Source of the DNA: an uncultured archaeon
GTDB taxonomy: Archaea > Iainarchaeota > Iainarchaeia > Iainarchaeales > 1-14-0-10-31-34
Direction of reading: 5' to 3'
Assembly: GCA_964442255.1 (NCBI GenBank)
Contig: CAYTYC010000002.1
Location: 730 to 64,729 of the forward strand
DNA: 64,000 nucleotides
Numbering within the stretch: position 1 is the stretch's first letter; every line of letters begins with the position of its first letter. The notes under the pieces were generated by a model. It was not told the DNA's origin, did no database searches, and saw nothing but the letters and a program-made list of their open reading frames with translations. Position numbers and translations under genes: made by a program. Of this stretch, positions 13,309 to 45,821 are shown piece after piece.

Positions 13309-13391
13309 AATAAAGGCGCAAAGTAGTATTTAATTTTTTTGAGTTGCCTCTTTTTTTCCTTGCGCGTTTCGGCCTTTTTTTTTCTGTCCAT

Positions 13392-14285: not shown

Positions 14286-14294
14286 TTTTTTTTT

Positions 14295-15020
14295 TCACCT
14301 CAAATGCGCGGGGGTGCTGAAACGAATGAATGCAAGGATTGCCGCCGCAATGGACGGAAAGAAAACCGCCACAATAAGCAGAACTGCAATTGGGGTGAGG
14401 CTTAAATCCAGGAAAAGGCTGCCCGCAATAAGGAATACCTGGAACAGTGCGGGGGCAAGCGCGCTGAACGCGATGAACATAAGCGAGTAGAAGACGAGTT
14501 TTGAGGAAAACTTTTTTGACTCATGCTTTTGCTTCAAGAGTATTTCTTTCGCAATTTTTTTCAGGGGCTCTGCCCTGTTTTTTTTCTCTCCGCCGGCGTC
14601 CATTAGGCTTACAATCTGTGAAACCGCCCGCTTAAGCTCAAGTGAATTGTTTTTTTCCGCCATCCTTTTCAGCGCGTCCCTTGTGCTTGCCCCGCATTCC
14701 CTGATTTCTTTCCCGCATTTTTTGAATTCCTTGCCTGCCTTTTCGTATCCTTCTTTCCCGACTGCTTCAATTCCTTCCTCTATTTCCAGCCCTGTGTTCA
14801 GCTTTACCGCCAAAGAAAGCAGGGCCAGGGGAAGCGCTGCCTCCAGTTCCTGCGTTTCCCTTTCTTTTTTGAGTTTTGGGTGAAGGAATTCCGTGAACGC
14901 GCAATATCCTCCGGCAACAATTCCCGCGGCAACAAGGCTTAATGTAAGCTCCCGTAAAGCCAGTGAAGCCAGAAACCATGCCCCCGGAAAAAGTAGCGCA
15001 AGAAAAAACTTTTTTTCCAT
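14295..15020 (-). CDS. Type IV pilus/archaellum platform protein, T2SSF-domain (TadB/FlaJ-half-like).
   Basis: N-terminal TM hairpin, cytoplasmic helical domain, and C-terminal TM bundle. It abuts the ATPase gene (stop/start adjacent at 15020/15021). Confidence 0.55.
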   Translation of the reverse strand: MEKKFFLALLFPGAWFLASLALRELTLSLVAAGIVAGGYCAFTEFLHPKLKKERETQELEAALPLALLSLAVKLNTGLEIEEGIEAVGKEGYEKAGKEFKKCGKEIRECGASTRDALKRMAEKNNSLELKRAVSQIVSLMDAGGEKKNRAEPLKKIAKEILLKQKHESKKFSSKLVFYSLMFIAFSALAPALFQVFLIAGSLFLDLSLTPIAVLLIVAVFFPSIAAAILAFIRFSTPAHLR

Positions 15021-16556: not shown

Positions 16557-16723
16557 TCGCTTATTGCCGTGCCGGCTGTTCCCGGCAGTGGAATCCCGCC
16601 TGCTCGCGGGAGTGGAGTGTGCCATACTCCGTATGGCACTGGCTCGGCTTTCGCCTCGCTATCATGCCTGTTTTCGTCCGGCCGGGAGTGAGAGAGAGGC
16701 GTAATTAGAACGGCAGTTGCCCC
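16557..16723 (-). promoter_or_regulatory. GC-rich structured intergenic element between the nucleotidyltransferase stop and the ATPase start. It may be a 5'UTR, an attenuator, or a small RNA.
   Basis: The 167-nt spacer is far GC-richer than other intergenic DNA. It holds a perfect 9-bp hairpin GTGCCATAC-TCC-GTATGGCAC (16619-16639) and a CCCGC-CTGCTC-GCGGG hairpin (16596-16611). No T-run terminator is present. Confidence 0.3.
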
Positions 16724-17339: not shown

Positions 17340-17390
17340 GCGCGTAAAAAACAAAAAAAAATAGAAAAAGCGAAGGCTTACGCCTTCTTT
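17340..17390 (-). terminator. Intrinsic-type terminator (hairpin plus T-tract) for the 664-aa surface-protein gene.
   Basis: The GAAGGC-TTAC-GCCTTC hairpin (17372-17387) spans the TAA stop codon. On the minus strand it is followed by GCTTTTTCTATTTTTTTTTGTTTTTT. Confidence 0.5.
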
Positions 17391-19372
17391 TTTGGCTTCA
17401 TTGCGTTTTCTTCAGGCGCAATTGGTTCGGCTCCGCCTTCCCGCCCTTTTTTGGAGTAAAAGTACCATCCTGCGATGATTACTGCCACCACGATTATCAG
17501 GATGATGAATCCCTCCATTCCAGGCATTGCAGCGGGCTTTTGTTGGGGAGCCGTTTTCACGCAGTTTCCTGCCTGGCATGTTCCTTCCGGGCAGATTGAG
17601 CCGTCAGGCAGCGCCTCGTTCACGCACTGTCCGGTGGCTGCATTGCAGTAGTCCCTTGTGCACGGGTTTCCGTCGTCGCAGTTCACTCCCTCACAGGGGT
17701 CAACCACAACTTTTGCCCCTATTTCAGTTACAACCGGGGAAACGGTTTCCAAAAACGCTGAATCCGTTATTTTTTTGCCCACACTGTATTTTACTTCATA
17801 AGAGCTGTTGGGGTTGATGTAAGGCACCAGGAACTCTAATACGGGGTCTTCCACCAGCACCTCAAATTCCTCGTCACTGCTTATTTCTGAGGCTTTTTGC
17901 GCAATGCTTTTTGGCACTGTTGCAAGCACTTTCACGTTCTCCCACCTTTGGCCGGAATTGTTTTCAACTGTTATTGTGAGCGTTGTCATGTAGCTCACAA
18001 CTCCTCCGGCTGAGGTTAGTTTCTCCACTTGGTATGTGAAGGTGATTGTTTCAATGTCCTCCATTGCCTCAAGCGCCTCTGCAATCTCTTCAGGGGTAAA
18101 GCCGGCATCTGAAAGTATTTCAGTTACCTTTTCGTCTGTCGGCGTGTAGGTTGTGCTGTTTTCCGCAATCACTTCGGTGGTGGCTTCACCTGTTTCGCCT
18201 CCTCCTGTTCCTCCGTTCCCACCCGGCCCGGCCGGGGTTGTGGGGCTTGTTCCCCCTGTGGAGGTGTCCGTGGCGAAAGCGTATTCAGAGAATGAGTCAA
18301 TGTTTACCTGTACGTAGTCCCTGTCGGTGTTCACTGTTTTTCCTGAACTGATTTTTGTCCAGCTTGAGCCATCGTATTTCCAGATGTTCAGGTTTGCGCT
18401 TTGCGCCTGTTCATCCGTAATGAAGCCCGTGTAAGTCAGCCTGAGGGTTGCGTTTCCGTTGTTGTTTACGGTCAGCCCGGTTTTGCTTGAGCCAAAGGAA
18501 AACCTTGGCGCATCGTTGTCCAGGCTTGCGCCGGAAGGCGTTTTTGCTGCTGATTCAGCGTTGATGTCAACCGTGATGAAGTCTGTTCCGGCTGTGCCGT
18601 TTGTTCCGTCCTGTGGAATGCTGAAGTACATTCTTTCCTGCCCTGTTGCGTCAGTGAAGTTCAAATCAGTTACCCCGGATGCCTGGATTGTCTTTATTCC
18701 GACTATTGCGTTTGGTTCAACGTTTGCGCCGCTTTGATCTGAATCATACCCTGACTCGCTTACCGCCAGCCCGTTTATGAACGGCACGGCTGAAATGTAT
18801 ATTCCGTCCGGCAGGTCTTCAAACGTGAAAACGCAGGTGAATGTTCCCGCGTAATTGTATGCGTGCCCGTAATACGCTATTTCTGGGTCCCATTGCGTGA
18901 ACTTTGCGCCCACGTTGTTGTCCAGCACTCCGGGGGCCCCTGCATCCGGGTCAAAGTCAACATAGCCGTATTCCAGGATATTCAAATCGTGTCCTGCAAT
19001 GTCTGTGACGTACTGCGAGAGCCCGTAGCTGTAGTAATCGGAGTTTGCGGTGCAGTTTACATCGGTGTTTGACTGCGCGCTCAGTCCCCCTGTATTGGGG
19101 TCCCCGTTTGTGTTCATTTTAATCAGGCGCGCTGAAATTGTTCCAATGGCTTCATATCTTTCCTTGTAGAATGTGACCGTGACGTTTATGTCGTCTGTTC
19201 CCGGGTCGTGCTGGGTTGTGGGGGAGGCGGTGACATAGAAGGCCGCGGGGTTTCCGCTGTTGTAAACCAAATGGAAAACTATTCCCGCGATTACCGCGAT
19301 AACAAAAAGCCTTTTTGCGATGTATTTTTTGTCAAGATGAATTTCTTTCTCCAGCCCCATTTCACCACACAC
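17378..19372 (-). CDS. Cell-surface protein with an N-terminal signal/anchor, a Thr/Gly-rich linker, a C-terminal Cys-rich module and a TM anchor.
   Basis: The N-terminal hydrophobic segment is LFVIAVIAGIVFHLV. The linker is TGGTSPTTPAGPGGNGGTGGGETGEATTE. The Cys-rich module reads CEGVNCDDGNPCTRDYCNAATGQCVNEALPDGSICPEGTCQAGNC. The C-terminal TM IILIIVVAVIIAGWYFY is followed by a basic tail. Many N-x-S/T sequons. Confidence 0.65.
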   Translation of the reverse strand: MCGEMGLEKEIHLDKKYIAKRLFVIAVIAGIVFHLVYNSGNPAAFYVTASPTTQHDPGTDDINVTVTFYKERYEAIGTISARLIKMNTNGDPNTGGLSAQSNTDVNCTANSDYYSYGLSQYVTDIAGHDLNILEYGYVDFDPDAGAPGVLDNNVGAKFTQWDPEIAYYGHAYNYAGTFTCVFTFEDLPDGIYISAVPFINGLAVSESGYDSDQSGANVEPNAIVGIKTIQASGVTDLNFTDATGQERMYFSIPQDGTNGTAGTDFITVDINAESAAKTPSGASLDNDAPRFSFGSSKTGLTVNNNGNATLRLTYTGFITDEQAQSANLNIWKYDGSSWTKISSGKTVNTDRDYVQVNIDSFSEYAFATDTSTGGTSPTTPAGPGGNGGTGGGETGEATTEVIAENSTTYTPTDEKVTEILSDAGFTPEEIAEALEAMEDIETITFTYQVEKLTSAGGVVSYMTTLTITVENNSGQRWENVKVLATVPKSIAQKASEISSDEEFEVLVEDPVLEFLVPYINPNSSYEVKYSVGKKITDSAFLETVSPVVTEIGAKVVVDPCEGVNCDDGNPCTRDYCNAATGQCVNEALPDGSICPEGTCQAGNCVKTAPQQKPAAMPGMEGFIILIIVVAVIIAGWYFYSKKGREGGAEPIAPEENAMKPKKKA

Positions 19373-20333: not shown

Positions 20334-21131
20334 TTAACCCTTTCCTTTTGCTTCCAGCTTCTCCACGAATTCCTTCAGCGAACACCCGGTTTCAATGTTC
20401 TTTTCTTTAACTTTTCCCAAAATTTTTTCCAGAATTTTTTTCCCTTCCCCAAAGGACTGGATATGGAAAAGAAACACAAAGAATTTTTTTTCTTCAATTC
20501 TTTTCAGCATTTTTTCCGTGAACTCCATTGCCTTTTCTTCGCTGTACTGGAACTGCATTATTGGGTCACACACACTCTCCGCAGGCACAACCCGCAGCCC
20601 TTCAGCTGTCTTCCATGTCTTTGGCTTAAAGAAATAAGAATCTGAAGAATAAAGGAAGCCGTTTTCTTTGAGCTCTTTTTCCCTTCCCCGGTGGAGGTGA
20701 AACCTTGGGCTCCTGTAGCCGTCAACCTTTTTCCCAAACCTTTCCTCAAGAATTTTTTTTCCTTCAGAAACAAGTTTTTTTCGTGTTTCCTTTTTTTCTT
20801 TCACTATTTCGTTTCTTTCGTGCGTCAGCCCGTGCTGCGCAATTTCATGCCCCTTCAGTATTGCCGTCATTTCCGCAGCTTTCTCCTTGCTTAATGTTTT
20901 TCCGTATACTTTTGGTATAACAAAAAAGGTTCCCTTTACCTTGAATTTTTTCAGCATCCATGCAAGCCCCTTTAAGTCGGATAAATCTGTTTTTTCGCTT
21001 AAATCGTCGCAGGTGAACAGAAAAAATTCGTTGCTTAGCAAAGGCTTTCTTAGGGCGCTTATTGGGGGAAAATGCATGAACAAATCCAGCCCTTTTGCGT
21101 TCAGTGCCTTTATAAAACCGGTTAAATGCAT
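20334..21131 (-). CDS. Polysaccharide deacetylase (CE4/NodB-like).
   Basis: It has FLFTCDDLSE (a TFDDG-type Asp motif) and HEIAQHGLTHE (an H-x4-H metal-binding motif). Length is 265 aa. Confidence 0.6.
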   Translation of the reverse strand: MHLTGFIKALNAKGLDLFMHFPPISALRKPLLSNEFFLFTCDDLSEKTDLSDLKGLAWMLKKFKVKGTFFVIPKVYGKTLSKEKAAEMTAILKGHEIAQHGLTHERNEIVKEKKETRKKLVSEGKKILEERFGKKVDGYRSPRFHLHRGREKELKENGFLYSSDSYFFKPKTWKTAEGLRVVPAESVCDPIMQFQYSEEKAMEFTEKMLKRIEEKKFFVFLFHIQSFGEGKKILEKILGKVKEKNIETGCSLKEFVEKLEAKGKG

Positions 21132-23561: not shown

Positions 23562-25289
23562 TTGAATGTTTTGGGTATCTCAGCTGAATTTGTTCACGAC
23601 TCTGGTGCAGCGCTGGTAAAGGACGGAAAACTTGTCGCTGCGGCAGAAGAGGAAAGATTTTCGAGAAAAAAGCACGACTACTCCGCCCCGCTTGAATCCA
23701 TTAAATTCTGCCTAAACCAGGCCAACCTGACAATGGATCAAATAGATTTTGTGGCTGTTCCGTGGCTGCCGTTCAGTGCCTTCTCCTATGGAAATGTTTT
23801 CAGCTGGCTTTCCCGGGGAAGGGATGTCTGGCCTTTGGGGGCCCATTTTCTCTTAAACAAGGGGCTTAACTCCGCTGTTAAACTGTGGAAGTCAGGAAAA
23901 AACTCTAACCAGCTTGAAGTTGAAAAACTTTGCCAGGGCACTGTCGCCTATCTTTCAGAGCAATACCTTGACATTCCTGAAGTAAAATACTTTGAACACC
24001 ACAAAGCGCATGCAGCCAATGCATTCTACTGCTCCGGCTTTGATGATGCCTCAGTCATAAGTGTTGACGGAAACGGCGAGGCAAACGCAACTGTTGTCTG
24101 GAATGCGGACGGAAACTCAATCGAAAAAGTCAGGGAAGAGCTTTGCCATAATTCCTTGGGAATGTTTTACCTTACTGTAACAAATTTTTTGGGGCTTGGA
24201 AGGTTTGGGGAAGGCAAAACAATGGGGCTCGCAGCCTACGGAAAGAAAAACAAATCCCTGGAAAAAAGAATCCGTGAAAAAATAATTGACACCGAAAAAC
24301 CGGAATGGTACAAGCTTGGCTTCCCTTCTTTAACGTATGAATCAAACGCAATAAACAAACAGGTTTTGGGTTTTCCCAGCCGAACAAATGAATCCCCCCT
24401 TGGAAAAAATTATGCTGACTTTGCTTTTGCTTCCCAGAAGGCGTTGGAAAAGGCTGTTTCAAATATTGCGGAATGGGCTGTTGAAAAAACAGGCCGCCCC
24501 AATCTCTGCTTAAGCGGGGGGGTTGCCTTAAATTGCCTTGCAAACTCTGTTGCAATGAATTCACACAATGTAAACGGTTTTTTTGCTTTCCCTGCAGCAA
24601 ATGACGGCGGGACCCCTGTTGGGGCGGCACTGCTTTGCGCTGCAGAGCACGGAGAGAAAGTCAAGCACAAGATGGAGCATGCTTACTTTGGCCCAGCTTA
24701 CTCCAATAAGGAAATCGAAAATCTGTTAAAAAAAATTAAAGCCGATTACACTGAAAGCAGGGACATCTCAGGCGAGGTAGCGGAACTCCTTGCAAAAAAC
24801 AGGATTGTGGGCTGGTTTCAGGGCAGAATGGAGCTCGGACCAAGGGCTTTGGGGAACAGAAGCATTCTTTCAAATCCAACAAAAAAATCCACAAAAGACA
24901 AGGTAAACAAGTTAAAGGGGCGGGAGTTTTGGCGTCCTTTGGCTCCTTCCATGCCGGATGAAGCAAAAGAAGAATACTTGGAGGCTGCTGTTGAGTCCCC
25001 GTTTATGATTTTAAGTTTTAACATCAGGAAAGAAAAACTAAAAGAAATTCCTTCCGCCTCCCACGTTGACGGCTCCACCAGACCCCAAACAGTAAAGAAA
25101 AAATCCAACCCAAAGTATCACCGTCTTATAAAAGAGTTTGAAGGCTTAACCTCTGTTCCAGTTGTCTTAAACACTTCCTTTAATTTGAAACACGAGCCAA
25201 TTGTCTGCAGCCCTTTGGATGCTGTCCGGACATTTTACTCCTCCACACTTGACGCCGCCGCAATAGGGGATTTTTTGTTGTTAAAGTAA
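23562..25289 (+). CDS. NodU/CmcH-family carbamoyltransferase.
   Basis: The N-terminus MNVLGISAEFVHDSGAALVKDGKLVAAAEEERFSRKKHD is highly characteristic of the family. The 575-aa length also fits. Confidence 0.85.
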   Translation: MNVLGISAEFVHDSGAALVKDGKLVAAAEEERFSRKKHDYSAPLESIKFCLNQANLTMDQIDFVAVPWLPFSAFSYGNVFSWLSRGRDVWPLGAHFLLNKGLNSAVKLWKSGKNSNQLEVEKLCQGTVAYLSEQYLDIPEVKYFEHHKAHAANAFYCSGFDDASVISVDGNGEANATVVWNADGNSIEKVREELCHNSLGMFYLTVTNFLGLGRFGEGKTMGLAAYGKKNKSLEKRIREKIIDTEKPEWYKLGFPSLTYESNAINKQVLGFPSRTNESPLGKNYADFAFASQKALEKAVSNIAEWAVEKTGRPNLCLSGGVALNCLANSVAMNSHNVNGFFAFPAANDGGTPVGAALLCAAEHGEKVKHKMEHAYFGPAYSNKEIENLLKKIKADYTESRDISGEVAELLAKNRIVGWFQGRMELGPRALGNRSILSNPTKKSTKDKVNKLKGREFWRPLAPSMPDEAKEEYLEAAVESPFMILSFNIRKEKLKEIPSASHVDGSTRPQTVKKKSNPKYHRLIKEFEGLTSVPVVLNTSFNLKHEPIVCSPLDAVRTFYSSTLDAAAIGDFLLLK

Positions 25290-33749: not shown

Positions 33750-35183
33750 CTACGAAAAAGCCCGGATCATTTTCAGCCCCTGAATGTTTCTTTTGATGTC
33801 TGTCCATCCCCGTATCTTCAGAATCCTTTTAAGTACATAATTTGGCCGCAAATAAAATTTCCTGAACGCCTTTTTTTGGAGTTCCTTTATTTCCTCAATG
33901 CTTTTGTATCCGTGGGGAATGAAAACAGGCTCCCAAATGCTGTACTTGTCAAAGTCTTCAATCAGTTTTCCGTATTTTTTTGCGTCCTCGTAAAGCTGTG
34001 TCCCGGGAAAAGGGGTTGTGATGCAGAACTGCGCGTAATCCACGTCAAGTTCAACTGCAAAGTCAATTGTTTTTTCCGCAAGTTCAGGCGTTTCTCCCGG
34101 CAACGCAAGCATGAAGGAGCCCCTCGCCTCAATTCCGGCTTCTTTTGTCAGCTTCACCGCCTTCCTTATCTGCTCCGGGTTTGTCCGCTTGTTTATTATG
34201 TCCAACAGCTTTTGGCTTCCGCTTTCAATTCCGTAAAAAATGTTCCAGCACCCGGCTTCCTTCATTTTATCCAAAAGCCCTTTGTCAACAGTATTCACCC
34301 TGCCGTAACAGCTCCAAGTCAAGTCCAGTTTTTCTTTAATCATCAAATCGCATAATTCATGGAGCCATTTTTTGTTTGCTGTGAGGGTGTCGTCCCAGAA
34401 GGAAATTTCTTTTATCCCGAATTCTTTAATGATTCGCTTCATTTCTTCCACTGCCTTGAAAGGGCTTCTTGCCCGTATTTTTCTTCCAAACATTGAGTGG
34501 CTTGAGCAATAAGTGCAGTTGTATGGGCATCCCCTGATTAAAACCATGTTCGCCACTGGCTTTCTTTTGTACTGGTTTGGAAGAGGCAGATACTTTTCCA
34601 TTGGCAGGAGCTCCCTTGCCGGAAACGGAAGCTTGTCTAAATCTTCTATGAGCTCCCTTGGCTTTGTTTTAACTATTTTTTCCCCTGACAAAAAATAGAT
34701 TCCATCAATTTTTTTGAGCTTCTCCTTTTTTTCAATTATTTTTTTGTCCCGCTTTAATTCGCTTAAAAGTTCCGTGAAAGTTTTTTCGCCTTCCCCGTAA
34801 ACCAGGACATCAAAAACCCCTTTTTTCATTACCTCTTCCGGCAGGATTGTTGCATGGTGTCCCCCGACAACAAGAACAATTTCCGGAAACCTTTCCCTCA
34901 GCTTCTCTGCGAGAAAAAGTGTTCTGTTAAAGGTCGGCGTCAAAGAGGAAAACCCGACAACCATTGGCCTGAGTTCCGCTATTTTTTCCAGCACGCCTTC
35001 CATTGAAAGCCCTAAAACAGGGGCATCCAGAATTCCTGCGCTGAAGCCCTCTTCTTTCAGCACGGCTGCAAGCGTGGCGAGCCCCAATGGAGGCATATGC
35101 CCCCCGACATCCCCAACCCCGTGAGCATATCTTTCATCTATTGAAATGGGGGGAAAAACCAGCAGGCAGTCCAGCATACCCAC
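33750..35183 (-). CDS. Class B (B12-binding) radical SAM enzyme.
   Basis: An N-terminal cobalamin-binding Rossmann-like domain (VLVVGGHHAT...) is followed by a radical SAM core with CPYNCTYC (CxxxCxxC). Length is 477 aa. Confidence 0.85.
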   Translation of the reverse strand: MGMLDCLLVFPPISIDERYAHGVGDVGGHMPPLGLATLAAVLKEEGFSAGILDAPVLGLSMEGVLEKIAELRPMVVGFSSLTPTFNRTLFLAEKLRERFPEIVLVVGGHHATILPEEVMKKGVFDVLVYGEGEKTFTELLSELKRDKKIIEKKEKLKKIDGIYFLSGEKIVKTKPRELIEDLDKLPFPARELLPMEKYLPLPNQYKRKPVANMVLIRGCPYNCTYCSSHSMFGRKIRARSPFKAVEEMKRIIKEFGIKEISFWDDTLTANKKWLHELCDLMIKEKLDLTWSCYGRVNTVDKGLLDKMKEAGCWNIFYGIESGSQKLLDIINKRTNPEQIRKAVKLTKEAGIEARGSFMLALPGETPELAEKTIDFAVELDVDYAQFCITTPFPGTQLYEDAKKYGKLIEDFDKYSIWEPVFIPHGYKSIEEIKELQKKAFRKFYLRPNYVLKRILKIRGWTDIKRNIQGLKMIRAFS

Positions 35184-35216: not shown

Positions 35217-37196
35217 ATGCCAGTTGTTTTGATGGAAAGCCGGCGTTCATCCAGGAAAATCTTTTTCTTTTTTTTAGTTTGGCTTTTTTTATTTTGCGCT
35301 TCATTTTTGTTTTTTGGGGCCTCGGTTGACAACTTTTTTGTGAGCGACGATTTCCTGCTTCTTGACTACGGAAAAAACTTTTCCATTGAAAAATTTTTTG
35401 AACCCCTTCTTGACTCCTATTTCAGGCCGTTTTTGGGCTTCCTTTACTCAACCCTGCTGTTTTCCTTTGGCCTGGAGCCTTCATACTACAGGCTCTTCGC
35501 AATCTTAATGCACTCGGTTAACGCCTTCCTTGTTTTCCTTTTTGCAAGAAAAATCCTGAAAAACAGCCTGCCTTCTTTTTTTGCCTCCTTTTTCTTCCTG
35601 GTTTTCTTCCTCAATTACGAGGTTTTGTTTCAGGTAAGCACATTAAACGAAATATTTCTTTTCTTTTTTTCAATCCTTTCACTTTTGTTTTTTGCACATT
35701 ACCTTGAGCACAAAAGAAAAGCTTTTTACGCCTTTTCTTTTGCCTTTTTTTCCCTTGCTTTGCTGACCAAGGAGTCGGCTGTGATACTTTTCATTATTTT
35801 TATTTTGTTTGAGTTTTTTTTCCACTCCAAAGGGAAGCTTTTTTCACAAACCAGAAAAAGGGCCCTGCTTTTTGCGCCCTTCTTTTTTGCGGCCCTGCTT
35901 TCAGCTTCCCTCAAGGCATTATTGGCGCCTTTTTACGGGGAAGCGCCCCACCTATTCTTCTATTTGTTGTTCTACAGGGACGCGCTTGCATTCCTTTTGC
36001 TTCCGGCGCCTGACCTGCTTGTTTTCCTTGTGCAGTCGTCAGTTGACTTTCCATTTCGTTTTGCAGCAGGAATCCTGTTCATTGTTTTTTTTCTCGCATT
36101 AAATTACTTTGTTTTCTTCAGGTCGCGAAAACCGGCGTTTAAATTCTCCCTGCTTTGGATTTATTTTACCCTGCTTCTGCCGCTTGCTTTTGGCTCACCG
36201 CAGGCACGGTACTTTTATCTGCCGTCTGCCGGCTCTTCAATCCTGATTGGATACTTTTTATGGTGGCTTATAAAATCAAGTGCCTTGACTCAAAGAAAGC
36301 TTGATGCAAAACGTTTTGCGGGAATTGTTTTTTCTGCGGTGGTGATTGTCCTTATTGTTGGTTCAAGTTTTGTGTACACCTGGCAAAAGGAAAGCGAATG
36401 GGATTCAGCCGGAAAAATCTCTGAATCAACCCTTGCTGAGGCGTCAGCACATTTAAGCTATTCCCCTGAAGCCCCTGTGTTTTTCGTTTATGAAAGGGAT
36501 TCCTTTGAAGGGATTTTCTTTTTTGACCGCGTGCTGGTCTGGAGAAACGGATTTGAGGAAGCCATGGAACTCTTCCATGGAATTTCACCGGAATGGCGGG
36601 AAAAATTTTCTTTAAGCGAGGTTTTCTGTGAAAACCCGGAGCCAAAACAAGGAAAGCTTTTTTTGCTCTTCAATTCAAGCGAAAAAAAAGCCAAGAAAAT
36701 TGAGTGCATCAGGAAAGGCGAAAACATTCTTTCAAACCCGGGCTTTGAAATTGCGGAAAACGGAAAACCTGTGGGCTGGACAGGCAAAGTAATCCAGGAC
36801 AATTCAAGGGCTTTCTCCGGAAACTCAAGCGGATTAATTGCAGCGGGTTTTTTCCCTGAAGAAAAAGCGTTTTCCGTGGATTACCCCACGGGCAAAAGCC
36901 ACGCATACTATCTCCTGTCTGCAAAGGCTTTTGGCGAAGGTTCTCGCCCGCAAATGCATTTATTCGGGAAAGGCAAACTTTACTCTGGCTTTCTCTTAAA
37001 CTTTGATTTGCCTTACTGGGAAATCCTGTGGTTTAACATTAGAGGGGAAAGCGGATGGTTTAAGGCGGAAAAAATAGTTGAGGTTCCGCCTGAAGCAGAT
37101 TCCATTTACATCAGGCTTGACAACGACGGCTCAGGAAAAGTATGGTTTGACGAAGTGGAGTTAAGAAAAATAGAACCAGTTTTTGGGGATTCCTGA
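35217..37196 (+). CDS. GT-C-fold membrane glycosyltransferase with a C-terminal extracytoplasmic beta-sandwich (CBM4/9-like) domain.
   Basis: An N-terminal TM is followed by a loop-1 motif VSDDFLLLDYG (D44/D45, about 35346). There are more than 10 TM. The C-terminal ~160 aa (about 36715-37190), ILSNPGFEIAENGKPVGWTG...VWFDEVELRKI, resembles a carbohydrate-binding module. Confidence 0.55.
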   Translation: MPVVLMESRRSSRKIFFFFLVWLFLFCASFLFFGASVDNFFVSDDFLLLDYGKNFSIEKFFEPLLDSYFRPFLGFLYSTLLFSFGLEPSYYRLFAILMHSVNAFLVFLFARKILKNSLPSFFASFFFLVFFLNYEVLFQVSTLNEIFLFFFSILSLLFFAHYLEHKRKAFYAFSFAFFSLALLTKESAVILFIIFILFEFFFHSKGKLFSQTRKRALLFAPFFFAALLSASLKALLAPFYGEAPHLFFYLLFYRDALAFLLLPAPDLLVFLVQSSVDFPFRFAAGILFIVFFLALNYFVFFRSRKPAFKFSLLWIYFTLLLPLAFGSPQARYFYLPSAGSSILIGYFLWWLIKSSALTQRKLDAKRFAGIVFSAVVIVLIVGSSFVYTWQKESEWDSAGKISESTLAEASAHLSYSPEAPVFFVYERDSFEGIFFFDRVLVWRNGFEEAMELFHGISPEWREKFSLSEVFCENPEPKQGKLFLLFNSSEKKAKKIECIRKGENILSNPGFEIAENGKPVGWTGKVIQDNSRAFSGNSSGLIAAGFFPEEKAFSVDYPTGKSHAYYLLSAKAFGEGSRPQMHLFGKGKLYSGFLLNFDLPYWEILWFNIRGESGWFKAEKIVEVPPEADSIYIRLDNDGSGKVWFDEVELRKIEPVFGDS

Positions 37197-37239
37197 GGCG
37201 GCAGGCAATCAATAAATTATTAATTAGTTTAAGACACAA

Positions 37240-38103
37240 ATGTTTCCTGTTATGGCCAAAAACGCTGTTTCCGTTGTAATGCCCGCATTTAACGAGGAAA
37301 ACGCTGTTTCAGGCGTGATTTCAGGGGTGAAGAAAGCCCTCAAAGGCTTTACCCATGAAATAATTGTTGTGGATGACGCCTCCACTGACCGGACAGCGCG
37401 GGCAGTCGGAAAAAAAGCCCTTCTCCTCAGCCACACCCAAAACCGCGGATACGGCGCAAGCATTAAAACAGGAATTAAAAAAGCAAAACACGAATGGATT
37501 CTCATAATCGACGCTGACGGCAGCTACCCAACCGAAGCAATCCCAAAGCTGTTGCCTTTCGCAGGAACATTTGATATGGTTGTCGGGGCGAGAACAGGAA
37601 AAAAAGTTAACGCCCCGTTAATCAGGAAGCCCGCAAAATGGTTTCTTACAAAACTTGCAAACTATCTCACAGGCACAAGAATCCCTGACCTTAACTCCGG
37701 GTTAAGGCTGTTCAGGAATGAAAGTGCATTGAAGTTTTTTTCCATTCTCCCAAACGGCTTTTCCCTTACCTCAACAATCACGATTGCCTTTCTTTCAAAC
37801 GATTTTTCAGTAAAATATGTTCCAATAGACTACCTTAAAAGAAAAGGCAAGTCCAAAATCAGCCCAATAAAGGACACAGTGAATTTTACTTTGCTTATTC
37901 TCAGGGCAATAACCTATTTCAGGCCCCTGAAAATTTTTCTCCCTGTTTCTTTTGTGTTATTTGTTTTGGGTTTTATTTACGCCCTTTACATCGGGTTTTT
38001 CAGGGGCCAGCTGCCTGACTCTTCTGTTTTGCTTATGGTAATGGCGGTGCAGTTTTTTTTCCTCGGGCTGATTGCGGATTTGATGTCAAAAAACAGGGGC
38101 TAA
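37240..38103 (+). CDS. GtrB/ArnC-like GT2 (polyprenyl-phosphate sugar synthase) with a C-terminal TM hairpin.
   Basis: It has VSVVMPAFNEENAV...IIVVDDASTDRT...IIDADGS, plus two C-terminal TM helices. Total 287 aa. Confidence 0.8.
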   Translation: MFPVMAKNAVSVVMPAFNEENAVSGVISGVKKALKGFTHEIIVVDDASTDRTARAVGKKALLLSHTQNRGYGASIKTGIKKAKHEWILIIDADGSYPTEAIPKLLPFAGTFDMVVGARTGKKVNAPLIRKPAKWFLTKLANYLTGTRIPDLNSGLRLFRNESALKFFSILPNGFSLTSTITIAFLSNDFSVKYVPIDYLKRKGKSKISPIKDTVNFTLLILRAITYFRPLKIFLPVSFVLFVLGFIYALYIGFFRGQLPDSSVLLMVMAVQFFFLGLIADLMSKNRG

Positions 38104-39063
38104 GTGGCTGGAAAAATGGGAAATAAGACAAAAGTCCTGCTTTCAGGAACAATAACCGCGGTTTTGGTTTTTTTTCTGCTGACCCAATTCAATGCCCTCA
38201 AAACGGTTGAGTTAATCTCCAATATTTCGCCTGCCTGTATTGCTTTGGCTGCAGCAATATACTTTTTAATAACCCTTTCCAAGGCTTTGAGGTTCAGGCT
38301 CTTGCTTGGGCCTGACCTGAAGGTAACCGGGCTTTTCAAGATTGCCTCAATCCACACCCTGTTCATAAACCTTCTTCCCTCCAGAACCGGGGAGTTAAGC
38401 GGGCTCTATCTTTTAAGGAAGCATAATGTTTCCCTTGCAAGTGCGACCTCTGCTTTGGTTGCCTCACGGGTTTTCGATTTTTTTGCGCTTTCAGGAATAT
38501 TTTTTGCGGTGGTTTTGCTCCTTCCGGAACTCCCTGAATTAATTTCAAGGGCCATTTTTTTGGTTGCGCTTTTGGTTTTCATGCTTTTCTTTATTGTTCT
38601 TCTCATTTTGTATTTCGGGGAAAAAGTTGTTTTTTTGCTTATAAAATTTTTTCCCAAAACCGGCTTGCGGGAAAAACTCGGAAACCTGCTTCTGGAAGTG
38701 GTTCACGCTTTTAGGGTAATAAAGTCAAAAGATATCCTGTTTTCGGTTTTCCTGGTTTCCGTTGTGAGGTGGCTGCTGCTCATATCCTTTATTTTTGTCG
38801 TTTTGCAGGGCATGATGGTGGATGTTACGCTTCTCATTGTTTCCATTGCCACTTCTTTTCTGAAACTTCTCGACTTCATTCCTGTACAGGGCCTGGCAGG
38901 CTTTGGAACCGTTGAAGGGTTTTACTCAATTGTTTATATTTCGCTTGGAATGGGGAAGCAAACAGCCCTGGCTTCAGGCTTTGCATACCATCTGTTGTTG
39001 TTGGCTTACTCAATTGTTTTCGGATTGTTTTGCATTTTCTTGGAAAGGAAAAAAGTTTTCTAG
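38104..39063 (+). CDS. UPF0104/MprF-flippase-domain-like polytopic membrane protein, a putative lipid-linked sugar flippase.
   Basis: 319 aa and 8 TM. Its start abuts the stop of the GtrB-like GT2, the same arrangement as GtrA/flippase partners. Confidence 0.45.
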   Translation: MAGKMGNKTKVLLSGTITAVLVFFLLTQFNALKTVELISNISPACIALAAAIYFLITLSKALRFRLLLGPDLKVTGLFKIASIHTLFINLLPSRTGELSGLYLLRKHNVSLASATSALVASRVFDFFALSGIFFAVVLLLPELPELISRAIFLVALLVFMLFFIVLLILYFGEKVVFLLIKFFPKTGLREKLGNLLLEVVHAFRVIKSKDILFSVFLVSVVRWLLLISFIFVVLQGMMVDVTLLIVSIATSFLKLLDFIPVQGLAGFGTVEGFYSIVYISLGMGKQTALASGFAYHLLLLAYSIVFGLFCIFLERKKVF

Positions 39064-40571
39064 CGCTTTTGCGCAAGGACTGTCGCCATGTTCGGTCTTT
39101 TCCCCGGAAAAAGGTCGGAAAGCAGGATAAGGGGGTAAATGAAAGGGAAAACAATAAGCTGAAGCAATGGGTTTAAGCGGTAATAGTATTTGTTTGCCAG
39201 GTCCCTGGTTTCAATGAATTCGTAATCCAGAACCCTGAAGCCGTTTTTTTCCAGAACCTTTTTCAGGCGCATGAAATTGTATCCGCTCCTGAAGTGCCCT
39301 GCTTTTCTTTCGTGTTCTTCGGAGATTATTCTCCTTGTGTCAGAGTCAACGCATAACACAAGGAATCCTTTGTCTTTCAGGAATTTCGGGAACTCGCTGA
39401 AAACAAGTGCATCGTTTTTAATGTGGCCCATGAGGTTTGACGCAAGAACGCAGTCAAATTTTTTTCCCGGCGAAAACCTTTTCTCCAGGTCAGCATATTT
39501 GAATTCCACGTTCAAACCGTGTTTTCTTGCAACAGTCCTTGCAACCTCTATCCTCTTTAAGTCGTTGTCCACGGCCAGAACGCTTGCCTTGAATTTGTCG
39601 GAAATAAGCACAGCAATGTCCCCGATTCCGCAGCCCAAATCCAGCACGCTTTCAAACGGCGCGGCCTTTTTGAAGTGCTTAAGCATGCTTTTGACCCTTA
39701 AGCGCTTGAAAACAAGCGGAGGGCCTATTACATTCAGGTAAAGTTTCAGCAGGGGCTTTGGGATTTTCTTTTTTGTTGCCAGCACATTTGAGACGTAAAG
39801 CTTGTTCCTTATTTTCTTGAAGTTTATCCTGCCCTCGGATTTTTTCCTTTTGAATCCGATTCCCCCGACTTTTTTTGTGAAAATCCTGTCAGGCTTTCCG
39901 TACAGCTTGAAGTTTATTTTGAAGAAAAGGTGGTAAAGCGAGGTAAGCGCCTTTGCCGGGTAATTCAATGGGTTGCTGTACAGGACATAATAGTCTATCG
40001 GAAAAACCTCTGCATCCTTGAATCCCTTGAACCTGAAGATTTGCTTGAGGCTGTAGCCCGTGAAAAAAGAGTAATGGTCAACGTTTTGGTGCGGCGCAAC
40101 AGGGCCTATAAGGGGATTTGCGGGGTTAAGGGAATTCACCAGAAAGGCTCCGCCTTCCCTCAGGCTTTTTTTTGCAAGGTCAAGCAATAGGAGGACTTCC
40201 TTTTTTGTCAGGTGGTTGAGTTCCTGTTCCGCGAAAATGAAGTCAAATTTTTCCCTGTTTTTTGCAAGAAAGTCTAAGGAATCCCCTGTCTTGCAGGCAA
40301 AGCCCTTGAATGATGCGTACTCTGTTTTTTCGCTGTCCGCATCCATTCCCAAAGCGTTTTTGTAGCCAAGCTTTTTCAGGAAATTCAGGAAGTATCCATG
40401 CCCGCAGGACATCACAAAAATTCTTGCGTTCTTGTCTTCAGGCAAAAACCTTGCGTAGTTTTTCCTGTAAAATTTGTAAAACAGGCGGTAGTCGCTTTCA
40501 ACATTGCCTGTTCCCTCACAAAAGCTTGTGAACGGCCTGAACTCCGCTGTCAGCTTCATTTCTTTCCCCAC
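39060..40571 (-). CDS. Tandem-domain class I SAM-dependent methyltransferase.
   Basis: Two separate motif I regions are present: ARIFVMSCGHGYFLNFL in the N-terminal half and VLDLGCGIGDIAVLIS in the C-terminal half. Confidence 0.7.
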   Translation of the reverse strand: MGKEMKLTAEFRPFTSFCEGTGNVESDYRLFYKFYRKNYARFLPEDKNARIFVMSCGHGYFLNFLKKLGYKNALGMDADSEKTEYASFKGFACKTGDSLDFLAKNREKFDFIFAEQELNHLTKKEVLLLLDLAKKSLREGGAFLVNSLNPANPLIGPVAPHQNVDHYSFFTGYSLKQIFRFKGFKDAEVFPIDYYVLYSNPLNYPAKALTSLYHLFFKINFKLYGKPDRIFTKKVGGIGFKRKKSEGRINFKKIRNKLYVSNVLATKKKIPKPLLKLYLNVIGPPLVFKRLRVKSMLKHFKKAAPFESVLDLGCGIGDIAVLISDKFKASVLAVDNDLKRIEVARTVARKHGLNVEFKYADLEKRFSPGKKFDCVLASNLMGHIKNDALVFSEFPKFLKDKGFLVLCVDSDTRRIISEEHERKAGHFRSGYNFMRLKKVLEKNGFRVLDYEFIETRDLANKYYYRLNPLLQLIVFPFIYPLILLSDLFPGKRPNMATVLAQKR

Positions 40572-41644
40572 CCTGGGACAACGTTATTGTACAGGTATGC
40601 AAGATTTTTAAAGGTTTGAGGGATGCAGCTTTCACACGGCAGGTAAGGCCGTTCTTTCATTTTGGTTTTTTTCCTTAACTCAACATATTTTTTGTTGTTC
40701 CACACTCCCTCAAATCCGTCCCTTAAAACATTCCCCAGAATTCCTTCCCCGCGTTTCCACACAAACATCTGGCACGGTCTTACATCCCCGTTGAATTCAA
40801 TGTAAGTGTGCGTCCAAGGAAAATGGCACACCCTTCCGGTGTCCCGGAATTCTTCTGCCGGCCGCATTTTGTTGTAGTACATCCCCAAATCCCTTAAAAG
40901 AATCGGAATGTTTGTTTTCACTTTCAAAGTGTTTGCTTTTTCAAGGCCTTTTTCCAGTTTTTCCTTTAGTTCATTGAATGAAAGGTTTCCGACAACAACC
41001 TTTTTTTTGTATTCCATGTTCACGAACTCCATGTACTGCACGTAAACGGCCTTTGCCCTAAAATCCTTTGCCATCCCGACCACTTCATCCAGTTCATCCA
41101 AATTGTCCCTTTGGAGAGCGAAGTTCAGCCTGAGCTCGGGCTTTTCCAGCCCGTGCTTTTCCTTGAATTCCTGGAGCTTCCTTATGTTTTCGGTTACCAA
41201 CTCAAAGCAGTCTATTCCGCGGATTTTTTTGTAGTTTTTTTTGTTTGAGGAATCAATTGAAACCTTTACCATGTCCAGCCCGCTTCCGCAGATTTCCTTT
41301 ATCTTGTCCCCAACAAGGGTAAAATTGGTTGCAAGCCCAACCGGAATTCCTTTGGATTTTGCGTATGAAACCATTTCCAAAAAATCCTTGTTCAGGAATG
41401 ACTCCCCCATTCCCGTAAGGTTTAAGGTTGCGGGCTTAACCTCGTCCACTATCTTTTTGAATTCCTTCAGTGACATGAAACCCGGGTTTTTTATTGTTTC
41501 CCTGTGGTTGCACATCTGGCATCTGGAGTTGCAGGCGTTTGTGACCTCAAGCTGCAGGTACAGCGGCCTGTTCGGCGCCTTCGCAGGCTTGAACAAAAAA
41601 GAGTAAGCTGTCAAAAGAATGTTCTTTATTTTGTTTAAATTCAT
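40556..41644 (-). CDS. Radical SAM enzyme with a C-terminal SPASM/twitch domain.
   Basis: The core has CNSRCQMC (CxxxCxxC). A C-terminal Cys cluster reads C...CQMF...G...GN...CESC. It overlaps the upstream GT4 by 4 nt (ATGA). Confidence 0.8.
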   Translation of the reverse strand: MNLNKIKNILLTAYSFLFKPAKAPNRPLYLQLEVTNACNSRCQMCNHRETIKNPGFMSLKEFKKIVDEVKPATLNLTGMGESFLNKDFLEMVSYAKSKGIPVGLATNFTLVGDKIKEICGSGLDMVKVSIDSSNKKNYKKIRGIDCFELVTENIRKLQEFKEKHGLEKPELRLNFALQRDNLDELDEVVGMAKDFRAKAVYVQYMEFVNMEYKKKVVVGNLSFNELKEKLEKGLEKANTLKVKTNIPILLRDLGMYYNKMRPAEEFRDTGRVCHFPWTHTYIEFNGDVRPCQMFVWKRGEGILGNVLRDGFEGVWNNKKYVELRKKTKMKERPYLPCESCIPQTFKNLAYLYNNVVPGWGKK

Positions 41645-42792
41645 TTTCCCGTGCCCCGCGAACTTTCATATATTTTCAGGTAATCCAATGCAACCTTCTT
41701 CCAGGTAAGCTTTTCAACCGCCTTCTTTCGGTTTTCTTTCCCCATTTTTTCCCTCATCCCAGTGTCTTCAGCCATTCTCTGCAGTGCGTCAGCGAGTTCC
41801 CCTGAATTCTCGGGCTCAACAAGCAGCCCGTTGACATTGTTTTCAACTGTTTCCGGAATGCCCATTGCATTGCTTGCCACTATGGGCAAGCCGCATGCCA
41901 TTGACTCCGCAAAAACCAGCCCAAAGGACTCCGCAAGCGAGGGAAGGACAAACACATCCGCTTCCCTGTAGGCTTCCGGCAGCCCTTCCCCTTTAATGTA
42001 TCCCCTGAAAAAAACCGCATTCCTTAAACCAAGTTTTGCGGAAAAACTTTCCAGTTCTTTTTTGTGCGCGCCTTCACCGTAAATGTCCAGGCGAATGTTT
42101 TCAAGGCCTTTTTCTTGCAGCATTTTAACTGCCTCCAGAAGGTATTCTATTCCTTTCCTTTTTGTGAGCCTTGTGGTGCAAACCAGCCTGAAATTTTTTG
42201 AATGAACTTTTTTCAGGGGCCTGAATTTTTTGGAGTCAATTCCGTTGCCTATCACAGCGTAATCAATTTCCGGAACAAATTCCTCTGCAAGTTTTTCCAG
42301 CCCCCTGCTTAAGGCCACAACTTCTGAGGCTTCTTTCCACACCCCTCTGTTCACCGGCCTCAATATTCCGTGCTGCAACCCATACCCTGATTTATCGTAT
42401 CCGGGAACATCGGAGCCGCGCAATGAAACAATGTAATTTTTCCCGTAAAGCTTTTTCCCGAGCCACGGAATTATTCCGGTGGGGACACTGAAAAAGGCGT
42501 GCACTGCATCGTACTCCTTTTCCTTTAAGAGTTTCCTGTATTTCAGGAACCCGTTGAAGACATAAAGCGCCATTCCCAGACTGCCGCTGTCATGGATTCC
42601 TTTTCTTTTCATCCCGGCCCTGTAAACATTAATGCCTTCAGTTTTTTCCAGTTCCCTGAATTTTCCCGTGCCTCCTGTCAGGATGTCAACCTCATGCCCT
42701 AATTTTGCCAGTTCCCGCCCGATGTTGTAGGTTGCCCTGCCTGCGCCTCCCCCGACAGGCGGAAACTCCGGGTTAAGCAAAAGAATGCGCAT
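41641..42792 (-). CDS. Family 4 (GT-B) glycosyltransferase.
   Basis: The N-terminus is MRILLLNPEFPPVGGGAGRATYNIGRELAKLGHEV. The C-terminus ESFGLVFAESMACGLPIVAS is E-x7-E-like. Confidence 0.85.
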   Translation of the reverse strand: MRILLLNPEFPPVGGGAGRATYNIGRELAKLGHEVDILTGGTGKFRELEKTEGINVYRAGMKRKGIHDSGSLGMALYVFNGFLKYRKLLKEKEYDAVHAFFSVPTGIIPWLGKKLYGKNYIVSLRGSDVPGYDKSGYGLQHGILRPVNRGVWKEASEVVALSRGLEKLAEEFVPEIDYAVIGNGIDSKKFRPLKKVHSKNFRLVCTTRLTKRKGIEYLLEAVKMLQEKGLENIRLDIYGEGAHKKELESFSAKLGLRNAVFFRGYIKGEGLPEAYREADVFVLPSLAESFGLVFAESMACGLPIVASNAMGIPETVENNVNGLLVEPENSGELADALQRMAEDTGMREKMGKENRKKAVEKLTWKKVALDYLKIYESSRGTGK

Positions 42793-44392: not shown

Positions 44393-45821
44393 TTCCTGGC
44401 CAAAAATCTGCCTTGCTTTCCTTCAGCAAATCCCTGTCCAAAAAAATGTTTGCTGCAATGTAAACAGTTAGGCCTGCAACTGCAAGCAAAACAAGTGAAA
44501 CCAGCCCTCCGGGCATCAGTTCCTTAAGAAATAAAAGCACTGCAGCCATTGCAATTGAAGCAAGAAAAGGTTTCCCAATCCTTTCCACTGAACCGGAAAA
44601 CCTTTCCCCAGCAATCCTTGTTGCCTTGAAGATTGCCAGGGAATTCACAAACAAACAAGCCAAAATCACGGTTATTGCCACACCCATTGCCCCTGCATTA
44701 GAAACAGCCGGAAGAATTAAAACAGCCAAAATAGTGAGGTGAAGCAGTTCGATTTTTGCAAAAAGCCCCGGGTTTCCTGTCGCAAGAAAAAAGTTTCCCG
44801 CAACCGCGCCAATCACCCTGACAGCCCCAAACAATGCAAGTACCTGCATCAGCCCGACCATTGGCGCCCATTTTGCGCCGAAAACAACTGAAACAAACTC
44901 CGGAGCCAGGGCAAACAACCCAAAGCAAAGCAGGAAAACCACAAGGCATGTGTAATGAAGGGTTTTCCTGAAGCCGGCCAAAAGCTTTTCCTTTTCTGCC
45001 CTGATTGAAGAGTAAGTCGGAAACATTACCCTGTTGATTACTGAACTCATCAGTACAGCCGGAAGGTTTGAAATCACCAAAGCCATTGAATAAAATCCAA
45101 GCAGCTCCATCCCCAAAAATTTTCCCACCACCCCGATGTCCAGGTTCAGTATAAGGAAAGTCAGGACACTTGAAACCAAAACAAATTTTCCGTAGCCGAA
45201 CAGCTCCCGCGCAATCCTTTTGTCAAACTCCAGTTTTGGCCTCCAAGAAAACACCAGGTAAAGCATTAATGTGTTTACCACCGAAAGCACAACTGAACCG
45301 TAAACAAGCGCCCAGACACCAAAGCCATTTGCGGCAAAGAAAACAGCACAGGCAAAGTATGCGGTGTATGAAACCAACTGCGCCTGAACAGTTTTCTTGA
45401 ACTTAAGCTGTTTTTCAAGCAAAAAATAGTTCACGTTTCCAAGGGAATGGAAAACAAAAACCAGTGCAAGAATCCTTGTAATCCATTCAATCCTTGCGTC
45501 CCCAAAAAACCCCGCAATAAAAGGCGCGGAAAAGAAAATCAACACAAAAAAGACTGCGCTTACAGCCATTTCAATCCAAAAATTCGTGTTAGCGGCCTTC
45601 CCTATTTCTTCTTTCCTGTAAACAAGCGCCGCACTTATGCCCAAACCCTTGAATGTCTCAAGAAAACCTATTACCGCAAAGCCTATTGCAAACAGCCCGA
45701 ATGCCTCTGGCAAAAGAAACCATGCAAGGATTATCCGGCTCAAAAACTGGATTAAAGTGGTGTAAACATTTGAGCCCAAAACCAGCCCAAGGCTTTTTAC
45801 AGTTCTTAAGGTCAACCCCAT
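44385..45821 (-). CDS. wzx: Wzx-type flippase (MOP superfamily), third copy.
   Basis: The N-terminus is LRTVKSLGLVLGSNVYTTLIQFLSRIILAWFLLPEAFGLFAIGFAV. About 14 TM over 478 aa. Confidence 0.75.
   Translation of the reverse strand: MGLTLRTVKSLGLVLGSNVYTTLIQFLSRIILAWFLLPEAFGLFAIGFAVIGFLETFKGLGISAALVYRKEEIGKAANTNFWIEMAVSAVFFVLIFFSAPFIAGFFGDARIEWITRILALVFVFHSLGNVNYFLLEKQLKFKKTVQAQLVSYTAYFACAVFFAANGFGVWALVYGSVVLSVVNTLMLYLVFSWRPKLEFDKRIARELFGYGKFVLVSSVLTFLILNLDIGVVGKFLGMELLGFYSMALVISNLPAVLMSSVINRVMFPTYSSIRAEKEKLLAGFRKTLHYTCLVVFLLCFGLFALAPEFVSVVFGAKWAPMVGLMQVLALFGAVRVIGAVAGNFFLATGNPGLFAKIELLHLTILAVLILPAVSNAGAMGVAITVILACLFVNSLAIFKATRIAGERFSGSVERIGKPFLASIAMAAVLLFLKELMPGGLVSLVLLAVAGLTVYIAANIFLDRDLLKESKADFWPGIR

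Follow-up and report, generated by a model that had tools for sequence, protein, structure and literature searches.

Introduction

To our knowledge, nearly all radical SAM (S-adenosylmethionine) enzymes that work on sugars come from antibiotic pathways (BtrN, DesII, NeoN and BlsE), and most characterised SPASM/twitch enzymes are maturases of RiPPs, peptides that are synthesised on ribosomes and modified after translation. The SPASM domain is reportedly marked by a seven-cysteine motif, CX9-15GX4C - gap - CX2CX5CX3C - gap - C, which is said to have been set out by Grell et al. in 2015 and to bind the two auxiliary clusters AuxI and AuxII. We know of one system, mycofactocin, that unites a SPASM-family radical SAM enzyme with a glycosyltransferase and an O-methyltransferase. 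Here we analyse a radical SAM gene from an uncultured archaeon that lies between genes for a GT4 glycosyltransferase and a methyltransferase (MTase) on a 64-kb stretch of DNA (64,000 nucleotides of contig CAYTYC010000002.1, assembly GCA_964442255.1; hereafter, the window). On balance, we think that its product tailors a carbohydrate together with these two partners in a glycan operon, with a BtrN-like oxidation as the favoured chemistry.

Several described enzymes offer points of comparison. [quoted passage not shown] BtrN, the 2-deoxy-scyllo-inosamine dehydrogenase of butirosin (PDB 4M7T/4M7S), has an auxiliary cluster held by four Cys ligands, abstracts a hydrogen atom from a carbohydrate-like polyol and carries out a two-electron oxidation; in MoaA the auxiliary cluster is held by three Cys, and substrate binds at an open Fe site (PMC9012708). 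BlsE, a cytosylglucuronate decarboxylase, and DesII, a TDP-4-amino-4,6-dideoxyglucose deaminase/dehydrogenase, both act on nucleotide-linked sugars. NeoN and HygY, twitch epimerases of aminoglycoside sugars, abstract hydrogen from a sugar carbon; PMC10991966 gives Cys249 of NeoN as the hydrogen donor, and a title cited there states that loss of one Cys unmasks a dehydrogenase activity in HygY. Mycofactocin, as described in PMC9679996, combines the radical SAM-SPASM enzyme MftC with the glycosyltransferase MftF and the methyltransferase MftM, a mix of genes similar to that of the present locus.

Results

The open reading frame (ORF) called mechanically for the radical SAM gene was upheld (Table 1). 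Both of its Pfam matches lie above cutoff: Radical_SAM (PF04055) at residues 33-160 (E 4e-18, 66.5 bits, cutoff 29.5) and SPASM (PF13186) at residues 273-340 (E 5e-13, 49.7 bits, cutoff 21.5). The protein belongs to the radical SAM superfamily, with a partial (beta/alpha)6 TIM barrel and a GGE-type SAM motif, and an AlphaFold2 model built from 25 homologues reached a predicted local distance difference test score (pLDDT) of 91 and a predicted template modelling score (pTM) of 0.91. Cysteines occur at positions 38, 42, 45, 119, 146, 273, 291, 337 and 340. The first three make up the motif CNSRCQMC, and those near the C-terminus stand in the contexts RVCHFPW (C273), RPCQMF (C291) and PCESC (C337/C340); this core and C-terminal pattern had been noted in a preliminary description made from the sequence, and both are borne out. 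When 148 homologues with lengths of 320-400 amino acids were aligned, C38/C42/C45 were 98-99% conserved and the four C-terminal cysteines 99-100%, and C119 and C146 were not conserved. Because these seven are retained in 98-100% of the members, their pattern is not a product of chance. No further conserved Cys was found downstream of C340 in the window enzyme, in its subclade or in the family alignment.

Since exactly four C-terminal Cys are conserved and the remaining SPASM Cys are absent, we assign the protein to the twitch enzymes; as predicted from its sequence, it is a twitch enzyme with one closed auxiliary site of the BtrN type and not a full seven-Cys SPASM enzyme. Of the earlier designation 'SPASM/twitch', the twitch half therefore stands (four Cys, one auxiliary cluster) and the full-SPASM half falls with the absent Cys. 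The SPASM domain model matches the truncated domain all the same, because PF13186 describes the N-terminal part that both share. The enzyme belongs to no curated functional family, and its scores stay below the cutoffs of all NCBIfam models. The best of them, TIGR04317 ('tungsten cofactor oxidoreductase radical SAM maturase', a family that is itself uncharacterised), matches from end to end (residues 29-340 to positions 5-313 of 349) with 147 bits against a cutoff of 380. Given this score and the absence of a gene for aldehyde:ferredoxin oxidoreductase (AOR) from the window, we rejected an identity as a tungsten-cofactor maturase.

The gene sits in a tightly packed operon. The preliminary description had placed it between methyltransferase and glycosyltransferase genes, as Pfam scans confirm, and had reported an ATGA overlap with the GT4 gene, which is present in the sequence. 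A second ATGA at the other end had escaped it: the stop codon of the radical SAM gene overlaps the ATG of a double methyltransferase of 499 amino acids. The order of the translational unit is GT4, radical SAM, MTase-MTase, with overlaps on both sides of the radical SAM gene. The true start of the double methyltransferase would probably be 40559 and not the GTG at 40571; the mechanical call takes this GTG, 12 nucleotides (nt) upstream, and the gene calls of two loci (L001 and L002) use the equivalent of the overlapping ATG. Same-strand overlaps of 4 nt are common in the window, with at least six pairs in the mechanical ORF list, and because they are so frequent in this compact genome the overlap is not exceptional. 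As far as gene arrangement can tell, the ATGA overlaps show operon membership and are not unusual in themselves.

The same partners recur in orthologous loci of both domains. A word-indexed search returned 36 homologues, of which three share 56-61% identity, and an exhaustive search over 1.84 billion cluster representatives returned 237 with a threshold of E<=1e-30 and 10,353 with one of E<=1e-10. In the locus at 56% identity (L002) the whole module is syntenic, in the order GT4, radical SAM, MTase, MTase, LPG_synthase_TM, GT2, PMT_2, GT2, MTase and B12-binding radical SAM. Every orthologous locus long enough to judge (>=37% identity; DPANN and Desulfobacterota) keeps the GT4, and all but one keep the N-terminal half of the methyltransferase. 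The orthologous GT4 of L002-L004, L006, L007 and L009 scores 298-352 bits against that of the window, and in the Desulfobacterota and related loci (L003/4, L006 and L009) the GT4 reaches 309-322 bits and the N-terminal methyltransferase half 232-240 bits. Residues 1-243 of the methyltransferase match separate genes of about 250 amino acids in L002, L003/4, L006 and L009 (232-266 bits), and the C-terminal half has a gene of its own in L002 (213 bits). In L007 the GT4 is kept (298 bits), but the adjacent methyltransferase did not match the N-terminal half of that in the window. Because both partners are retained in the orthologous loci, the conserved core is, by sequence comparison, a predicted set of GT4, radical SAM and N-terminal methyltransferase that spans archaea and bacteria.

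Orthologues at 37-44% identity, from Desulfobacterota and related metagenome contigs, sit in classical polysaccharide loci that contain two GT2, two GT4, Wzx, two methyltransferases, the radical SAM gene and an AsnB-type amidotransferase; one locus instead contains LPG_synthase_TM, three methyltransferases, the radical SAM gene, a CapK-like protein, DUF362, PMT and exosortase EpsH/EpsI. The AsnB-type glutamine amidotransferase lies directly downstream of the radical SAM gene in three loci of Desulfobacterota (L006, L007 and L009), and in L003 (8132-10935) a CapK-like adenylating enzyme and a DUF362 Fe-S protein follow it directly. These neighbours hint that the glycans of those bacteria contain a carboxylated or amidated sugar. 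In orthologues from Brocadiia, a different GT4 abuts the start of the radical SAM gene. Across 72 homologous loci of at least 8 kb, a glycosyltransferase lies within 5 kb of the radical SAM homologue in 46 and directly beside it in 23, and a B12-binding radical SAM gene lies within 5 kb in 25, mostly from DPANN, the Candidate Phyla Radiation (CPR) and Omnitrophota. We refer to these uncharacterised proteins as the GT-coupled twitch radical SAM family, which we define here by co-location or fusion with GT4 or GT2 and class I methyltransferase across phyla, as is found for the window enzyme.

In some organisms the association is covalent. A survey of the 150 best of the 1.84 billion representatives yielded a GT4-radical SAM fusion (P0081), a fusion in the reverse order (P0108), a membrane GT2-radical SAM fusion (P0138) and a class I methyltransferase-radical SAM fusion (P0075), the last three being independent of the first. 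P0081 has the domain order of the window operon; its N-terminal half is 31% identical to the window GT4 over 370 amino acids and its C-terminal half 33% identical to the window radical SAM enzyme over 333 residues. On its NCBI contig, where a GT2 and a methyltransferase are encoded as well, it reads as a single uninterrupted ORF. This protein provides the strongest single argument, drawn from sequence, that GT4 and radical SAM enzyme would act together. Other fusions join a B12-binding radical SAM domain to a further radical SAM domain (P0167) or TPR repeats to two radical SAM domains and a sulfotransferase (P0168). Six very large proteins (P0094, P0163, P0178, P0176, P0167 and P0168), of 900-1450 amino acids, hold two to four radical SAM/SPASM modules in tandem, and some of these carry a B12-binding domain, or TPR repeats together with a sulfotransferase domain.

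Among characterised enzymes, BtrN is the closest by sequence profile. When the family profile was compared with all PDB sequences, BtrN came out on top (E 1e-28, 103 bits) with both core and twitch segment matched, followed by PqqE, SkfB, CteB and BlsE, the last at 64 bits. Like the window enzyme, BtrN is a twitch protein with a single auxiliary site of four Cys, and in the profile alignment these four fall in place one for one, as do the G-x4-C, GN, W, R and CxxC landmarks. The surroundings differ: the window gene stands among GT4, methyltransferase and glycan-assembly genes, and aminoglycoside genes were not found in the window. For this reason, and because identity is 18% and a single-sequence phmmer search lists no BtrN at E<=0.01, we rejected orthology with BtrN. 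BlsE is the best PDB match in single-sequence searches and also the best fold match. In Foldseek searches with the model, DesII, BlsE, SuiB, SkfB and CteB rank together at about 1e-12, and RiPP maturases score nearly as well on fold as BlsE does. The ranking of BlsE and DesII is thus suggestive, their scores being not clearly above those of RiPP maturases; they differ from the window enzyme in identity (15-17%) and in belonging to antibiotic pathways, and neither has a GT4 or a methyltransferase coupled to it. NeoN and HygY are likened to it by description only, and differ in that the window enzyme has no conserved non-ligand Cys. The genomic context of the window enzyme resembles that of none of BtrN, BlsE and DesII.

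Two further systems were considered and set aside. MftC of mycofactocin modifies the peptide MftA with the chaperone MftB and has two auxiliary clusters; in our case the MftC model gives 72 bits against a cutoff of 265, and mftA and mftB are absent. A biological-conflict system was likewise rejected, the 'GT4-conflict' Pfam model scoring 58 bits on the window GT4 against 157 for the generic GT4 model, and the vWA-MoxR and peptide effectors of PMC7159879 being absent.

Table 1. The radical SAM gene, its predicted cluster motifs and the neighbouring genes (positions in the window).
Feature	Position	Strand	Detail
Twitch-domain radical SAM gene	40556..41644	-	362 amino acids
CX3CX2C motif, SAM-cleaving [4Fe-4S] cluster (predicted)	41510..41533	-	C38, C42, C45 read from sequence
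Twitch core C273-x12-G286-x4-C291 ... C337-x2-C340	40625..40828	-	predicted ligands, one auxiliary [4Fe-4S]
ATGA overlap, GT4 stop / radical SAM start	41641..41644	-	sequence GGGAAAATGAATTTA
Second ATGA overlap, radical SAM stop / MTase start	40556..40559	-	sequence AAGAAATGAAGCTG
GT4 glycosyltransferase, conserved partner	41641..42792	-	Pfam Glycos_transf_1, 157 bits
N-terminal MTase domain of double MTase, second conserved partner	39831..40559	-	residues 1-243
C-terminal MTase domain, canonical class I SAM MTase	39060..39830	-	Pfam Methyltransf_23/25/31/11, residues 300-448
LPG_synthase_TM, flippase-like membrane protein	38104..39063	+	Pfam; present in L002, L003
GT2 with C-terminal membrane helices, polyprenyl-phosphate glycosyltransferase-like	37240..38103	+	Pfam; syntenic in L002
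PMT_2 / GT-C membrane glycosyltransferase	35217..37196	+	Pfam; PMT_2 also in L002, L003-5
B12-binding radical SAM, second radical enzyme of the module	33750..35183	-	Pfam B12-binding and Radical_SAM; end of L002

The nearest solved structures of the window GT4 are BshA and MshA, and that of the N-terminal methyltransferase half is 3dli, an uncharacterised methyltransferase. The double methyltransferase (39060-40559) fuses two genes that in L002 (3809-5325) stand apart, though with an overlap, and its glycine loop is atypical in the N-terminal half (SCGHG) and canonical in the C-terminal half (LGCGIG). Among NCBIfam models, the B12-binding radical SAM protein scores best with BchE (237 bits) and HpnJ (226 bits) but reaches the cutoff of neither. 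This gene stands beside those for PMT_2, GT2 and LPG_synthase_TM (35217-39063, plus strand), a gene content that recalls the hopanoid genes hpnI/J/L and is syntenic in L002. The mechanical 5' ends of divergent genes overlap, by 8 nt between GT4 and PMT_2 (42785-42792) and by 169 nt between Wzx and GT4 (45653-45821); the true plus-strand starts probably lie further downstream in both places, leaving short divergent promoter regions.

In Pfam scans, the window from about 20 kb to about 61 kb is a single glycan-assembly island of some 40 kb, with seven GT4, eight GT2, four PMT_2/GT-C, three Wzx-like flippases and five methyltransferase genes, as well as the B12-binding radical SAM gene, a carbamoyltransferase (23562-25289) and a polysaccharide deacetylase (20334-21131). 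Neither an SDR-type sugar dehydratase/epimerase nor an aminotransferase was found in the island by these scans. Because the GC content drops from 0.47-0.50 in the left flank to 0.41-0.45 here, we suggest that the island is a variable or acquired region in a presumably small DPANN genome. Outside it, markers on the minus strand at 11438-16625 place the host in the Archaea; they encode a chaperone of proteasome assembly (PAC2), an M42 peptidase, two FlaJ/TadC-like proteins of half size and a FlaI-like ATPase whose nearest named relatives are from 'Ca. Diapherotrites' and Micrarchaeota (41-48% identity). The host is, to judge from its genes, a deep-branching DPANN archaeon. An ORF of 1508 amino acids (6744-11270, plus strand) has no Pfam match, and one of 664 amino acids (17378-19372, minus strand) has only a Cys-rich Dicty_CTDC repeat; their products are candidate surface or surface-layer (S-layer) proteins and possible acceptors of the glycan.

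Discussion

A carbohydrate in a glycan pathway is, in our judgement, the likely substrate of this enzyme. A sugar or glycan target, rather than a RiPP, had been put forward in the preliminary description, and the proposal gains support from the lack of a precursor, RRE, PqqD or sulfatase partner in the window or next to orthologues, from the conservation of the GT4-radical SAM-methyltransferase set and from the GT4-radical SAM fusion. The cytoplasmic radical SAM enzyme would work with its two translational neighbours, the GT4 that precedes it and the methyltransferase that follows. Its reduced [4Fe-4S] cluster would cleave SAM to a 5'-deoxyadenosyl radical, which would take a hydrogen atom from a carbon of the sugar, this being either the nucleotide-sugar donor of the GT4 or a lipid- or acceptor-linked product. 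A two-electron oxidation of the BtrN/DesII/SpeY type would then yield a keto-sugar from a CH-OH, and the electron would depart by way of the auxiliary cluster. The preliminary description had listed epimerisation, dehydration and the formation of C-C or C-S bonds as examples of the chemistry; we favour a two-electron oxidation because the auxiliary cluster is predicted to be fully Cys-ligated, with no open Fe site, because the subclade has no conserved non-ligand Cys that could return a hydrogen atom, and because the closest sequence relative, BtrN, is a polyol dehydrogenase. The coupled methyltransferase may act on the keto/enol intermediate or on a neighbouring hydroxyl, and the products of the neighbouring GT2, flippase-like and GT-C genes would incorporate the modified sugar into a surface glycan.

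Several points weigh against this proposal. The GT4-radical SAM fusion P0081 is known from a single 4.9-kb contig, and a frameshift artefact is possible. BtrN shares about 18% identity with the window enzyme and has a shorter barrel. Nothing in the operon is an obvious consumer of a keto-sugar, such as a reductase or an aminotransferase, and a literature search of incomplete coverage found no characterised member of the family. The call of a dehydrogenase is indirect, resting as it does on the predicted ligation of the cluster and the absence of a donor Cys, and that the reaction is specifically a dehydrogenation is a tentative assignment, possible rather than probable.

Position 292 (codon 40769-40771), next to the ligand C291, bears on this choice of chemistry. 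It is a Cys ('PCC') in 122 of the 148 aligned members (82%), and Q or P stands there only in the subclade (L001-L009) in which the orthologous GT4 and N-terminal methyltransferase half are retained. If C292 is the hydrogen donor in the majority, then the subclade of the window may be a dehydrogenase variant, and the position a natural switch of reaction outcome; we offer this as a hypothesis.

That the enzyme acts on the same class of sugar by other means, as a NeoN/HygY-like epimerase, a BlsE-like decarboxylase, a DesII/AprD4-like dehydratase or deaminase, or by forming a C-C bond, we regard as rather unlikely, although it is the serious rival to our proposal. The fifth Cys of the wider family could serve as a hydrogen donor in the manner of Cys249 in NeoN, BlsE leads the fold matches, and the AsnB and CapK-like neighbours of the bacterial orthologues hint at a sugar of the uronic-acid type because both act on carboxylates. 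For the window enzyme itself, however, a Cys-dependent epimerisation is unlikely, given Q or P at position 292 throughout its subclade and no other conserved free Cys; genes for uronic acids or an amidotransferase are absent from the archaeal operon, and the profile match to BtrN is far stronger than that to BlsE (103 against 64 bits). A lipid target, be it a polyprenyl or dolichyl carrier, a glycolipid head group or a membrane lipid, perhaps with formation of a carbocycle in concert with the B12-binding enzyme by analogy with hopanoid HpnH/HpnJ or archaeal calditol synthase, seems improbable. The module of GT2, LPG_synthase_TM and B12-binding radical SAM does resemble hpnI/hpnL/hpnJ, with 226 bits for HpnJ; the P0138 fusion tethers the radical SAM enzyme to a membrane-embedded GT2, GDGT-MAS is among the PDB matches, and radical SAM chemistry on archaeal head groups exists, for example in Cds (PMC13459092). 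Yet all hpn-type scores fall far below cutoff, the match to GDGT-MAS is limited to the generic radical SAM core, Pfam scans of the window found no squalene-hopene cyclase or lipid-synthesis gene, and it is with a soluble GT4 and a soluble methyltransferase, not with lipid enzymes, that the association is tightest and most widely conserved.

Maturation of a peptide or protein would be the conventional expectation, given what most characterised SPASM/twitch enzymes do and the strong fold or profile matches to SuiB, SkfB, CteB and PqqE. The substrate, whether a RiPP precursor, a surface or S-layer protein or the glycosyltransferase itself, would then be encoded elsewhere in the genome, and the two large candidate surface proteins at 6744-11270 and 17378-19372, the latter with its Cys-rich repeat, could be named in this connection. 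We nevertheless consider such a role very improbable. The earlier observation that no small ORF adjoins the gene is confirmed by the absence of any intergenic gap above 43 nt between 33,009 and 45,821. When the search for Cys- or Gly-rich precursors was extended over the 64-kb window, none of its six gaps of at least 120 nt held a credible ORF; the gaps of the orthologous loci are equally tight, and no precursor was found in them or adjacent to any orthologue. With every gap searched, both in the window and in the orthologous loci, a RiPP cluster with a hidden precursor was rejected. Pfam finds nothing on the enzyme beyond Radical_SAM and SPASM, and no PqqD-like neighbour; as only about 30 residues, forming one helix in the model, precede the catalytic core, there is no RRE domain. 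The RiPP models of NCBIfam score far below their cutoffs (bits/cutoff: MftC 72/265, StsB 63/625, PqqE 60/381, WgkB 57/650, AlbA 43/850), and among the 150 best representatives the fusions are to glycosyltransferase and methyltransferase domains, never to peptide-handling ones. A surface protein as the substrate, which the preliminary description had raised as an alternative, finds no support. The chance that the enzyme is instead a relative of the anaerobic sulfatase maturases (anSME), making formylglycine on a sulfatase, is close to nil: it has only four of the seven SPASM Cys and so no second auxiliary cluster, no anSME model is among its 25 best NCBIfam matches, and, among about 55 ORFs of 150 amino acids or more that were scanned in the window, none contains a sulfatase domain. 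On the Cys count and the missing sulfatase we excluded this candidate, which the preliminary description had kept in view.

To conclude, tailoring of a glycan sugar alongside the GT4 and the methyltransferase is the reading that we prefer. We found no paper on a radical SAM enzyme as an integral, glycosyltransferase-fused component of surface-glycan operons, within a literature coverage that is incomplete. Radical chemistry on sugars is already known, so the finding is no surprise in principle. Here, the twitch radical SAM enzyme is a fixed and sometimes covalently fused partner of a glycosyltransferase in primary surface-glycan operons of uncultivated anaerobes of both domains, and this conserved coupling defines an uncharacterised enzyme class that is directly testable, with the GT4-radical SAM fusion as a ready-made construct for biochemistry. 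In genome mining, SPASM/twitch genes beside glycosyltransferases should not be counted as orphan RiPP clusters. More speculatively, and with a low expectation that all of it holds, the GT-coupled twitch enzymes and B12-binding radical SAM enzymes of DPANN, CPR, Omnitrophota and anaerobic Desulfobacterota and Planctomycetota may form an unrecognised toolkit for tailoring surface-glycan sugars independently of O2 and NAD, docked on or fused to glycosyltransferases and yielding keto, C-branched, carbocyclic or otherwise rearranged sugars that are not known from described glycans, in which the change from C292 to Q or P would be a switch from epimerase to dehydrogenase. If the preferred reading is true, radical chemistry would be the source of some of the sugar diversity on the cell surfaces of these organisms.

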